From Vampirovibrio sp. (GTDB lineage: Bacteria; Cyanobacteriota; Vampirovibrionia; Vampirovibrionales; Vampirovibrionaceae): 58,578 bases of DNA. Below are positions 11,887 through 20,042 of the stretch, piece by piece. Location: contig JAJQJM010000002.1 in assembly GCA_021323475.1 (NCBI GenBank), positions 1-58,578 of the forward strand. Direction: 5' to 3'. Below the pieces are notes generated by a model. It saw only the letters and a list, made by a program, of their open reading frames with translations. It was not told the DNA's origin and ran no database searches. A program made the translations under genes and the position numbers. Within the stretch, counting starts at the first letter, position 1. Every line of letters begins with the position of its first letter.

Positions 11887-11988
11887 TTAGTGGCGATAAC
11901 GAGAACGGCAGGTCAACATCCCGAGCCCGAAAGTACGGCGGCTACGGCGACGTCGGATTTGAGTATTTTCAAAAAAGGAGATCAACAT
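11887..11988 (-). CDS. candidate arginine leader peptide (33 aa, 9 Arg codons)
   Basis: My own reverse-strand translation gives ATG..TAA = MLISFFENTQIRRRRSRRTFGLGMLTCRSRYRH. Codons 12-18 are CGA CGT CGC CGT AGC CGC CGT. A weak AGG lies 6 nt upstream of the ATG. The ORF sits between a candidate promoter and a terminator just upstream of argJ. Confidence 0.55.
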   Translation of the reverse strand: MLISFFENTQIRRRRSRRTFGLGMLTCRSRYRH

Positions 11989-12018
11989 GTCCAACCTGCC
12001 AATTGATAGTGCCTAGCT

Positions 12019-16811: not shown

Positions 16812-17081
16812 GAGAAGCTTCTTTAAATCCTCACGATGAATTAAATTGCGTCGATTCAATTGGTTGCAGCTTTAACAGGAAGGGTAACATCAACGTAACT
16901 TGCGTTATGCCCCGGAGCAATAGACTTCCATGAATTTCTCTGGTATTCGAATAGGCAGAGATGACAAGACGGGTTTTTAGATGCTGAGCAGGGGAACAAA
17001 CGGCAGCCGGTTTTGCCCTGGTTTACCCTGAATACGCCTCTGGAGGGACAGCCCTCAACTCCCGTCAACCCAAAGGAAAAA

Positions 17082-18401
17082 ATGATGGAACGCTTTTTTA
17101 CAGCTCACTGCCTCTTTAAAAAAATCTACCGGGAAGGTTATCTCTTCAAGCGCTACCTGCGTGAACTTCAGCAATCTTACCGGCTTTCCGCGGATGAGTT
17201 GGCGGCCTACCAGCGACGGCAGTTGCGGGACATGGTTCAGCATTGCTATAAAAATATTCCTTATTACCGGGACCAGTTTCGGCAGCTTGGCCTGAAGCCG
17301 GACATGATTCGAACACTGTCAGACTTATCGGAACTTCCTATATTGGATAAGCAGACTGTAAAGGATAATTTTGACAAGCTCATCGATCGCAAACGCCTTA
17401 CCCCTTGGTGCCATAAAGCAAAAACTAGCGGAACAACCGGCTCTCCCGGCGTATTTATCCGGGATCGGGACGCCATTGTGTTTGAACATGCCGCTGTTTG
17501 GCGACAATGGGCTCAAGCCGGGGATACCGGCAAAAAGCGCGTGACAATCCGGGGCGGTATGGTCGTACCCATGACTCAAGCCGAGCCTCCCTTCTGGCGT
17601 TACAACCCGATCCATCGGGAACTGATCATGTGCTGCTATCATCTGTCTCCTAAAACCGGCAAGGCTTATATCGATAAAATTCTGGAGTTCAAACCGTCCG
17701 TTCTATACAGCTCCCCAACCATCGTTTATACGCTAGCCAAGCTGTTTAAGGCGTATCGTGTGCGCTACCCGTTCGAGCATATTTTCATGTCATCGGAAAA
17801 TTTGTCCTCTGAAATGGCCCAGCTCATCCGTCAGGTTTTTGACGCGCCCATTTCCGATTGGTACGGCCAGGCGGAACGCGTGGCGGCCATCGCCACGTGC
17901 CCGCAAGGCACCTACCATATTCAGGAAGACTACTCTTTGGTGGAACTGATTGATACCCCCAACGGCAAAGAGCTGGTAGGCACCCAGTTACGCAATAAGG
18001 TTATGCCTTTGTTACGCTACCGCACCGGGGATTATGTGGCGGACGAATCTCCCGATTGTACCTGCGGCAGCAATTTTCGCACCGTCGCCAATATTATCGG
18101 CAGGCTAAACGCCTACCTGGTGACTCCCGAAGGCTACCGCATTTTTAACACCACCCATATTCCGGCCAGTATCAACAACCTGATTGAAACCCAGTTCGTG
18201 CAGGAAAAACCCGGAGAAGTGCGTATTAAAGTGCTAACCAACGGTAGCTTCCAAACGGAAGATCGCGAGGCCCTCATCCAGAAAACGCTACAATACACAT
18301 CGCCAACCATGAAGGTGGAAATTGAAGAAGTCAGCCACATTCCCCGCGGCCCGAACGGGAAATTCATCAGCATTTTGAATCAGGTGGAATCCCTCAATTA
18401 A
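17082..18401 (+). CDS. adenylate-forming enzyme, phenylacetate-CoA ligase (PaaK)/CapK-like family
   Basis: The AMP-binding loop KTSGTTGSPGVF is present and the length and architecture match PaaK-like proteins. I placed the start at ATG 17082, which has AAGGAAAA upstream. The ORF is open from 17013. Confidence 0.8.
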   Translation: MMERFFTAHCLFKKIYREGYLFKRYLRELQQSYRLSADELAAYQRRQLRDMVQHCYKNIPYYRDQFRQLGLKPDMIRTLSDLSELPILDKQTVKDNFDKLIDRKRLTPWCHKAKTSGTTGSPGVFIRDRDAIVFEHAAVWRQWAQAGDTGKKRVTIRGGMVVPMTQAEPPFWRYNPIHRELIMCCYHLSPKTGKAYIDKILEFKPSVLYSSPTIVYTLAKLFKAYRVRYPFEHIFMSSENLSSEMAQLIRQVFDAPISDWYGQAERVAAIATCPQGTYHIQEDYSLVELIDTPNGKELVGTQLRNKVMPLLRYRTGDYVADESPDCTCGSNFRTVANIIGRLNAYLVTPEGYRIFNTTHIPASINNLIETQFVQEKPGEVRIKVLTNGSFQTEDREALIQKTLQYTSPTMKVEIEEVSHIPRGPNGKFISILNQVESLN

Positions 18402-18449: not shown

Positions 18450-18478
18450 TTGTCTTGTATCAAGCTTTATAGTATAGT
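18450..18478 (+). promoter_or_regulatory. sigma70-type promoter preceding a ~340-nt leader
   Basis: TTGTCT (18450-18455), 17-nt spacer, TATAGT (18473-18478). Confidence 0.5.
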
Positions 18479-18571
18479 CGGCCGGTACTGGCTGAAACCT
18501 GCATCGGTATTTCTGCAGACACAGCCTTAAACCATTCCAAAACCGCGTATCTACTTCCGGGAGTCAAGTGA

Positions 18572-18652
18572 ATGATGAACAACAACGGATTTCAACCAAA
18601 TGGTTTGCTTCAATCCAACGGATTGCGGACCGTTAGGTTCTGTTGTTGTTAG
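18572..18652 (+). ncRNA. structured leader element (candidate three-way junction) that coincides with a 26-codon sORF
   Basis: P1 pairs AACAACAAC (18578-86) with GTTGTTGTT (18642-50). P2 is GGATT..AACC/GGTT..AATCC. P3 is AACGG/CCGTT. The same span reads MMNNNGFQPNGLLQSNGLRTVRFCCC, with GGGAG 8 nt upstream of the ATG. Confidence 0.4.
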
Positions 18653-18765
18653 TATCCATTTTTTGGTAGCCAGCATCGTTTGGTAATCTTATCGCTGGCC
18701 TGATCCAAGTCATATAGAGACCTTCAAATCCAATTGCGGATTTTGACTCGATTTGTCGCTAAATC

Positions 18766-18800
18766 ACCGCCCCGAGCGCTCCATATCGGGCGGTATTTTG
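18766..18800 (+). terminator. terminator-like hairpin inside the leader, 17 nt before the amidotransferase ATG
   Basis: ACCGCCC-(15-nt loop)-GGGCGGT is followed by ATTTTG. Confidence 0.4.
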
Positions 18801-18816
18801 AAGAGGTACCCGACCC

Positions 18817-19914
18817 ATGTCTCAGTTATCGCCAATTCAATCACGCGTTTTTGCGGCCCAATCACGGCCTTTATCAACAAGACTACACTCACCATCGCCT
18901 CGTTTCGGCTGCCGCCTGACTGGCGCCATGAGCACCACGGGCTCCACAGACGGGGATCAGTTCGTCAAAAGCATGACCGTCAACTTACCCGAAATCGCAG
19001 ACAAAAAACATGCCCTAACGGAAGGGGTTCATGCGGCGGCGGCCTTACTAAGGAATGATCAGTCACACGGCTGGGGTTACGCGCATTTTACGGTGAGCCA
19101 ATCACCAGGCACAGGCATCACGCTGAAGCAATTCAAGAGCCCCCTAAGCATTCTGCGCGATCCTCAATACCAGGCTCAGCGCCGCTCCTTCCAAACCGAC
19201 ACGCTTTCATCCGGCATTGCCCACGTCCGTAAAGCCACCGGGGGAACCGACATCCGAAAGGAGAACGCTCATCCTTTCAGCCTGAAGCTGGATAATACGG
19301 AATGGACCTTTGTACATAACGGCCGTTGGGACAATGCGCTTTCTCCAGCCATTCAGGCGCGCTTAAAGCAAGATCCGGTCTTTACGCCCAAGGGCACGAC
19401 AGATTCCGAGCATGCCTTTCTGGCCTTGATGCAGGCCATCCGCACACAACTGGGCACCTTGAATACTGAGCAAGTCGGCCAAGACAAAATGACACGCGCG
19501 TTTGCAGACGGCATCCGTCAGCTCACCCAGGAGCCTAGCCCATTCGTGACCGCTACCATTCCGGATTCCAACCTGAAGATTGGCGGTAAAGTCCGGGTTG
19601 GCCCAGCCTACAACTTTGTAGCCAACGATGGAGACCTAATGATAGCGTACCGTAACGGGCAAAGCCTATACTTGGGCGTCCAACGGGATGACAAAGGAAA
19701 AGTCGTTGCCCACGGGGTAGCCACAGAGCCGACTGCGCTACCGGGCGTGGTTTGGTTTGATGTGCCCGAGAACACGCTGGTAGTTATTTCCAAACAGAAA
19801 ACCACCGGGCAGTCCGCGGCCCAGGTGTTACCGCTGGAAAGCATTTCTCCGCTAAAAAAAGATTCTTACCCTCAAATGTTCTATAAATTCTTGCAAAGAT
19901 TTTCTGCAAGCTAA
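18817..19914 (+). CDS. class II (Ntn) glutamine amidotransferase, YafJ-like, with a 31-aa N-terminal propeptide
   Basis: CRLTGAMS aligns with the MCELLGMS N-terminus of YafJ-type enzymes. Other matching segments are HGWGYAHF, AHVRKATGG..ENAHPF, FVHNG and TDSEHAF. The catalytic Cys is residue 32. Confidence 0.8.
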   Translation: MSQLSPIQSRVFAAQSRPLSTRLHSPSPRFGCRLTGAMSTTGSTDGDQFVKSMTVNLPEIADKKHALTEGVHAAAALLRNDQSHGWGYAHFTVSQSPGTGITLKQFKSPLSILRDPQYQAQRRSFQTDTLSSGIAHVRKATGGTDIRKENAHPFSLKLDNTEWTFVHNGRWDNALSPAIQARLKQDPVFTPKGTTDSEHAFLALMQAIRTQLGTLNTEQVGQDKMTRAFADGIRQLTQEPSPFVTATIPDSNLKIGGKVRVGPAYNFVANDGDLMIAYRNGQSLYLGVQRDDKGKVVAHGVATEPTALPGVVWFDVPENTLVVISKQKTTGQSAAQVLPLESISPLKKDSYPQMFYKFLQRFSAS

Positions 19915-19935
19915 TTGCGGGTATCTTACACAGCT

Positions 19936-19961
19936 GGAAGAAAACTCTTCCATTATTTTTT
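19936..19961 (+). terminator. weak rho-independent terminator
   Basis: GGAAGA-aaac-TCTTCC is followed by ATTATTTTTT. Confidence 0.35.
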
Positions 19962-20042
19962 CCTTCTCACACGCTTTTCGGAAAGCGCGCCAGTTTCGGC
20001 TGTTTGCTTTACAATCAGAAAAACACAGCCGTGAGGTGGACC

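Follow-up and report, generated by a model that had tools for sequence, protein, structure and literature searches.

The DNA analysed here is a stretch of 58,578 nucleotides from Vampirovibrio sp. (the window), and the region of interest within it is a gap of 415 nt that separates a gene for a PaaK/F390-synthetase-like ligase (17013-18401) from the gene for an EgtC-like amidotransferase. This gap forms the leader region of the amidotransferase gene. From its 5' end it contains a promoter-like site, a short open reading frame (sORF) preceded by a Shine–Dalgarno (SD) sequence, a long hairpin lying within the sORF, a second, terminator-like hairpin and the SD of the amidotransferase itself (Table 1). 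The "intergenic" region is thus the site of a conserved, unannotated coding feature.

Table 1. Features of the sORF–amidotransferase locus in the window, and the Cys-run sORFs of the related loci
Feature	Position	Strand	Basis and remarks
Promoter-like site, sigma-70-type, TTGTCT-17-TATAGT	18450-18478	+	Motif scan; predicted transcription start site (TSS) near 18485
SD of the sORF, GGGAG	18559-18563	+	8 nt 5' of the ATG; read off the sequence
Leader sORF, 26 codons, MMNNN start, CCC then stop	18572-18652	+	Translation; homologous Cys-run sORFs in relatives
Long bulged hairpin within the sORF, 73 nt	18578-18650	+	MFE -31.2 kcal/mol, z -5.8
Terminator-like hairpin, stem 18766-18772 with 18788-18794, then AUUUUG	18766-18800	+	-13.9 kcal/mol, z -2.3
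SD of the amidotransferase, AAGAGG	18801-18806	+	Sequence; kept in the three-way alignment A4
EgtC-like class II (Ntn) glutamine amidotransferase	18817-19914	+	Pfam GATase_4, GATase_6
Terminator-like 7-bp hairpin and T-run TTATTTTTTC	19935-19962	+	Directly 3' of the amidotransferase gene
Cys-run sORF of G004	L003:1203-1289		28 codons; double ATG then S-N-N; six Cys at the end
Cys-run sORF of the JGI contig	L017:3715-3801		Near-identical copy of the G004 sORF; 6 Cys
Cys-run sORF of G039	L010:701-793		30 codons, 13 Cys; seven consecutive just before the end

The sORF begins with two Met codons and a run of three AAC (Asn) codons at 18578-18586, and it ends with three Cys codons (18641-18649) immediately before the stop codon at 18650-18652. 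The encoded peptide contains five Asn and two Gln residues in all. An earlier reading of this DNA, made from the sequence only, had already picked out the frame together with its SD, and both are borne out. The same reading had placed a good promoter ahead of the amidotransferase, which is indeed present and whose boxes recur in the relatives described below, and a GC-rich hairpin followed by AUUUUG, which we find 17 nt before the ATG at 18817. With only four U residues, this hairpin would be a weak terminator.

The predicted TSS lies ∼87 nt 5' of the sORF ATG, giving the sORF a predicted 5' UTR of ∼60–90 nt. Promoter boxes were found only 5' of the sORF, the spacer between the sORF and the amidotransferase containing no promoter-like site. 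In the motif scan, one promoter-like site was found against 1.4 expected and three terminator-like sites against 1.4 expected, neither count being significant by itself. The terminator-like hairpin and T-run directly after the amidotransferase gene suggest that the GT4 gene further downstream is probably not co-transcribed with it. The sORF and the amidotransferase are therefore best described as a predicted transcription unit of their own, with its own promoter and terminator.

A BLAST search of the leader against 40 relatives gave no match, the leader being too divergent, so the comparison followed the enzyme gene instead. It comprises four loci from three lineages: the window, L003 in genome G004, L017 on a JGI contig and L010 in genome G039; seven further orthologues (P0002, P0003 and P0005-P0009) are left out of the leader comparison. 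G004 belongs to the same genus as the window genome and G039 to another family of the same order, all being Melainabacteria. The amidotransferase of L003 is the closest homologue of the window enzyme, with 52% identity, and that of L010 is ∼32% identical to it. Scans of the GTDB representatives and of JGI each yielded one locus and no more, and samples of 400 genomes at the class and phylum levels gave nothing new at orthologous loci.

The first point to note is that the four loci share a common layout, namely a promoter, a Cys-run sORF of 26–30 codons, a spacer of 164–296 nt and an orthologous Ntn amidotransferase. The C-terminal Cys run has a length of three in the window, six in L003, six in L017 and seven in L010. 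The SD, the double ATG and the intact frame are retained in every case, with an AAGGAG sequence in G004 and JGI at the place equivalent to the GGGAG of the window. The promoter of L003 (TTGTCA-17-TATATT) has the same spacing as that of the window and nearly identical boxes, and is conserved in alignment A4; L010 carries a promoter-like TTGACT-18-TATCAT at the equivalent place 5' of its sORF. Minus-strand ORFs that run across the hairpin are not conserved among the compared loci.

The genes flanking the sORF–amidotransferase pair are different at every locus. Its neighbours are the PaaK-like ligase and GT4 genes in the window, a divergent M4 peptidase gene and a gene for an RTX-repeat protein in G004, and genes for unknown proteins and a GNAT protein in G039. 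The differing flanks, taken with the putative promoter and terminator in the window, suggest that the pair travels as a module. Since the PaaK-like ligase is not a conserved neighbour, the comparison also weakens the idea that ligase and amidotransferase might form a split enzyme.

Cys-run sORFs of this kind are rare. About 13 intergenic sORFs of up to 60 codons in the window genome (G000, 3.3 Mb) contain CCC, and only that of the window has both an ATG and an SD; the others that were checked are out of frame in real genes or random-looking. In G004 and G039, all other runs of at least five Cys codons lie inside a long ORF, in another frame. There is just one convincing intergenic Cys-run sORF in each of the three genomes scanned. 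Across the order, most Cys-codon runs arise from poly-Gln tracts read on the opposite strand or from Leu-rich signal peptides read in a shifted frame. Patterns of TGY x5 are much more frequent across the order than in the reversed control, because of Gln-rich genes such as that for the 456-aa protein of L099 (G034:C1:1204300-1207300, at 1118-2488 on the minus strand), which has an extreme Gln content and carries long poly-Q and QQGYGMP repeats. At L055/L069 (G039:C2:1-2410), tandem repeats of the CCCCCPYSSALD type extend in one frame over ∼1160-1770 on the minus strand, and this stretch overlaps several long ORFs in other frames. The window genome contains two copies of cysK and also cysE, none of which has a Cys-run leader sORF upstream. 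A wider Cys regulon was considered and set aside, with no such sORF before cysK or cysE and the other TGY x5 runs that were examined falling in other frames of long ORFs.

This distribution bears on the view that the sORF serves no dedicated function and arose by chance in a structured 5' UTR, being passed on with the gene. The small sample of loci, and the presence of just three Cys codons in the window, would be consistent with such an accident. However, Cys-run sORFs persist at 52% and ∼32% enzyme identity, with longer runs in the relatives than in the window, intergenic CCC sORFs are rare (the ∼13 in 3.3 Mb given above), and the SD and promoter are conserved. We therefore regard a fortuitous frame as improbable.

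The sORF of the window folds into a long bulged hairpin, the stability of which was matched by none of 200 shuffled sequences. In this fold AACAACAAC (18578-18586) pairs with GUUGUUGUU (18641-18649), with a pair probability of ∼1.0, so that the Asn codons form the 5' arm and the Cys codons the 3' arm. The 9-bp helix of AAC x3 with GUU x3 that had been drawn from the sequence is thus real. The three-way junction that it was proposed to close fares otherwise: its energy of -19.1 kcal/mol compares with an MFE of -32.3 kcal/mol, giving it a probability of ∼1e-10 in the ensemble. A three-way-junction aptamer was accordingly rejected, being 13 kcal/mol worse than the single bulged hairpin, and the consensus of three sequences is unbranched.

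The leaders of G004 and JGI have the same hairpin architecture (z -3.2 each), in which Asn and Gln codons early in the sORF are paired with its Cys codons. An RNAalifold consensus of the window, G004 and JGI sequences is a single unbranched structure of 29 pairs, of which four are changed on both sides and several show one-sided G-U changes. The M-to-L and Q-to-R changes that distinguish G004 and JGI sit within the helix and keep the pairing, and the non-Cys codons that are conserved (AAC, CAA and CAG) are precisely the pairing partners of the Cys codons. The G039 leader has no equivalent hairpin, its local fold not being significant (z -1.3). A covariance model of the hairpin (R1), run on 49 genomes of the order, found only the two genus-level loci on which it had been trained; one further match was discarded as false because it lies inside a TolC-like ORF. 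What appears to be conserved across families is the Cys-coding sORF, and within the genus also an RNA helix involving its Cys codons.

It is possible to suppose that the hairpin itself is the functional element, either as a ligand- or protein-binding RNA or as an element of processing or stability, with the reading frame incidental to it. The z-scores, the four double-sided changes that are retained, the higher identity between G004 and JGI in the sORF region (92%) than in the spacer (86%), and the presence of an RNase III in the window genome would all suit such a role. The compensatory changes, however, come from just two lineages, the covariance model finds nothing else in the 49 genomes, and G039 retains a Cys-rich sORF without the hairpin, whilst SD, double ATG and intact frame are kept every time. 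Nor was a known RNA family matched: the scan of the leader against Rfam 15, at E-values up to 10, gave a single hit, to the snoRNA sR5, which was dismissed as chance (E 6.8; 11 bits, the gathering score being 40). The sequence-only reading had likewise seen, by eye, no match to a riboswitch class, the glutamine (glnA) motif included. Its suggestion of a riboswitch-like aptamer found no support, there being no Rfam match, a junction that is energetically implausible and a covariance model that finds only the two genus-level loci. We give a function of the hairpin independent of the frame little chance. Since related uncultured Melainabacteria keep such an sORF ahead of the same enzyme gene, the likeliest reading of the leader is a ribosome-based sensor of cysteine, of a kind already published, and not a new riboswitch.

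A further possibility is that the sORF senses Asn and/or Gln codons, and that the Cys codons serve only as the complementary arm of the hairpin. The window peptide has its five Asn and two Gln residues, that of G004 two Asn and five Gln, and the downstream enzyme is from a glutamine-hydrolysing family. Against this, the G039 peptide contains 13 Cys compared with one Asn and two Gln, the Cys run alone is conserved across families, and the induction of a glutaminase-type enzyme at Gln shortage would make no physiological sense. Sensing of Asn or Gln is therefore very improbable, and the Asn codons seem to be there to pair with the Cys codons and not as a second sensor.

The enzyme encoded downstream consists of a single Ntn glutaminase-type domain, as in EgtC, the YafJ-type proteins and Dug3. 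Its best NCBIfam match is to EgtC (TIGR03442), at 59.9 bits where the cut-off is 218.65, and the best fold matches of its AlphaFold2 model in Foldseek are also to EgtC (4ZFL and 4ZFJ). The putative catalytic Cys is followed by R-L, comparable to the MCR start of EgtC. It is preceded by an N-terminal extension of ∼31 residues (18817-18912, plus strand), such that Cys32 is the presumed nucleophile. The extension ends RFGC, the F-G-C ending is invariant among the homologues, and in the model residues 1–30 are disordered and the first beta-strand begins at Cys32. All of this fits a predicted self-cleaved propeptide. The window enzyme differs from EgtC in having 365 aa, including the propeptide and insertions, compared with about 230. 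We rejected its identification as EgtC, on account of the score below the cut-off and of EgtD not being found in the genome. More widely, GshA (two families), GshB and EgtD were all not found in the window genome, which is 95% complete, and a glutathione or ergothioneine pathway context was discarded on these grounds.

EgtC is the Ntn hydrolase of ergothioneine biosynthesis, and its substrate is a derivative of gamma-glutamyl-cysteine. Dug3, a class II amidotransferase of yeast, degrades glutathione as a source of sulfur. By analogy with these two enzymes, control of the window enzyme by cysteine supply would be physiologically plausible, though its gene has no recognised place in cysteine or sulfur metabolism. 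A paralogous branch of amidotransferases with an RFGC propeptide is represented in the window genome (C61:10868-11665, minus strand) and in the relatives L007, L008 and L009. In the window genome and the three relatives its gene lies directly 3' of an SDH_alpha (serine-dehydratase alpha-chain) gene, and none of these paralogous loci has a Cys-run sORF.

In mycobacteria, sORFs with a polycysteine C-terminus serve as attenuators that respond to Cys; two or three consecutive Cys codons suffice, and ribosomes that stall for want of Cys-tRNA keep the Cys tract from pairing (Canestrari et al., bioRxiv 10.1101/834739). The window leader resembles the mycobacterial Ms5788A, Rv2334A and 'Cys ribulon' cases in several respects. 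A short unannotated ORF is predicted to head the mRNA and bears consecutive Cys codons at its C-terminal end (at least two at the 3' end of the ORF, as in mycobacteria, in all four loci). The Cys tract supplies an arm of a highly stable RNA duplex, the formation of which a stalled ribosome would prevent. In addition, the non-Cys residues are poorly conserved, and the homologues are found through synteny and not by BLAST.

Starting from the observed sORF, with its conservation, its specificity and its hairpin, we infer that the sORF is translated, that ribosomes stall at its Cys codons and that this is linked to expression of the enzyme. The interpretation that we prefer, and to which we give about an even chance, is that of a Cys-tRNA sensor in the form of a polycysteine leader peptide, a variant of the mycobacterial "Cys ribulon". 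The mRNA would start at the conserved promoter, with the 26-codon, SD-led sORF as its first cistron and three Cys codons before the stop. With Cys-tRNA(Cys) plentiful, ribosomes would finish and leave, and pairing of the Cys with the Asn codons would close the stable 73-nt hairpin. With Cys-tRNA(Cys) scarce, ribosomes would linger at the Cys codons and keep the hairpin from forming. The difference would be read out as raised expression of the single downstream gene, whose EgtC-like product may cleave a gamma-glutamyl amide, possibly that of a cysteine-containing compound. The number of Cys residues and the identity of the other residues vary, whilst the length and position of the ORF are kept; this is sensor-like, and unlike a folded peptide. 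Together with the use of the Cys codons as a helix arm, it fits a ribosome-based sensor best.

There are also clear differences from the mycobacterial systems. The mycobacterial sORFs are leaderless, whereas that of the window has an SD and the predicted upstream TSS. The Cys tract of Ms5788A pairs with the SD of the next gene, whereas the window tract pairs with the Asn and Gln codons of its own sORF. The gene under putative control, for an EgtC-like Ntn hydrolase, is not among the recognised cys or sulfur genes. Finally, the host is a Melainabacterium, with one such leader in each genome scanned and so no regulon.

How the hairpin would be read out is less readily explained. Release of an SD, as in Ms5788A, has no counterpart in the modelling: whichever ribosome position was modelled, little change or none is predicted in the accessibility of the enzyme SD and AUG in any of the four leaders. 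Within the window, all modelled states leave the SD of the amidotransferase mostly base-paired, its predicted partner being 18496-18520. Similarly, the window's terminator-like hairpin is predicted to form with the same probability whether the modelled ribosome covers the first Cys codon, the last one, the stop codon or the entire sORF, in contrast to an attenuator of the trp or his type, where this probability would depend on the position of the ribosome. A search for an antiterminator partner for this hairpin found none, the best competing duplexes being weak, and L003 and L010 have no counterpart of the hairpin itself. Because the hairpin is not conserved and has no antiterminator, a classical transcription attenuator is not supported. 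The earlier suggestion of an Asn/Cys-sensing attenuator can thus be kept in respect of Cys, given that the Cys-run sORF is preserved across two families, but not in respect of Asn or of classical transcription attenuation.

The same mixture of likeness and difference is seen on comparison with trpL, hisL, pheL, leuL and thrL. As in those leaders, the window has an ORF (14–30 codons in the known group) with a run of codons for one amino acid, placed between the promoter and the first gene, and a hairpin followed by a U stretch before that gene. It departs from them in lacking a mutually exclusive antiterminator and in its terminator-like hairpin, which is weak and absent from the relatives. Its regulatory codons, which directly precede the stop, are on the 3' side of the first hairpin, whereas theirs are on the 5' side, and the distance from the sORF stop to the terminator-like hairpin is long, at ∼115 nt.

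Two further routes that would need no RNA switch are removed by the gene content of the window genome. Rho (TIGR00767) and RNase J (TIGR00649) each gave no match above the cut-off in this 95%-complete genome, and we set aside both Rho-dependent control of the tna kind and the shielding of the mRNA from RNase J by a stalled ribosome. For a cysteine-sensing leader, two candidate outputs may be named, namely read-through of the weak terminator-like hairpin in the window genome and processing of the mRNA dependent on the sORF hairpin. The latter could possibly be carried out by the RNase III that is present.

Since no output switch was found for a sensor, and the sORF and enzyme genes co-occur strictly, we keep as a serious rival the view that the product of the sORF is a genuine Cys-rich peptide acting together with the Ntn hydrolase, be it as its substrate, as the precursor of a modified thiol- or metal-binding product or as its partner. 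The two genes would then be a small operon, in which the hairpin and spacer merely tune the ratio of peptide to enzyme. On this account, it would be natural that the pair is mobile, occurring in different contexts, that no other Cys-run sORF is seen in these genomes (before cysK or cysE, for example), that the peptides of the window and G004 share both their N-terminus (MM, S or N, then NN) and a GLR motif, and that no ribosome-dependent RNA switch could be modelled. The pN/pS value of the sORF between G004 and JGI is 0.23 and may be taken as no higher than the 0.17 of the enzyme, three and three changes being too few to discriminate. However, the number of Cys residues ranges from 3 to 13, their spacing is not conserved, and the G039 peptide shares little beyond Cys with the others. 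The conserved AAC, CAA and CAG codons pair with the Cys codons and may be kept for RNA reasons, as the pairing-neutral substitutions between G004 and JGI also suggest. To our knowledge, no class II amidotransferase is a peptide-tailoring enzyme. A predicted complex of the G004 enzyme with its Cys-run peptide had a score of 0.02, which is evidence neither way. Overall we consider a functional peptide unlikely but far from negligible. The more specific proposal, in which the polycysteine peptide is substrate or partner of the hydrolase in an undescribed two-gene system, thiol-rich and possibly metal-binding or modified, that is mobile among Melainabacteria, is likewise unlikely though not negligible.

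If the cysteine-sensor interpretation is correct, ribosome-based cysteine sensing would extend beyond the published mycobacterial cases to the non-photosynthetic sister group of the cyanobacteria, where the sORF is SD-led and the RNA pairing follows a different design. A further gain would be a regulatory clue to an orphan branch of YafJ/EgtC-type Ntn hydrolases, since an enzyme under the control of cysteine supply would probably handle a cysteine-containing gamma-glutamyl compound. The class of polycysteine leaders is already known, and the practical value is modest.

A second short frame with a codon run was noted elsewhere in the window. This 35-codon sORF, which contains RRRRSRR, lies at 11887-11994 on the minus strand between two genes of an arg cluster; a simple scan showed no terminator-like site there. 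As this window sORF precedes an arg gene, codon-run leader ORFs seem to be used in the lineage of this organism.
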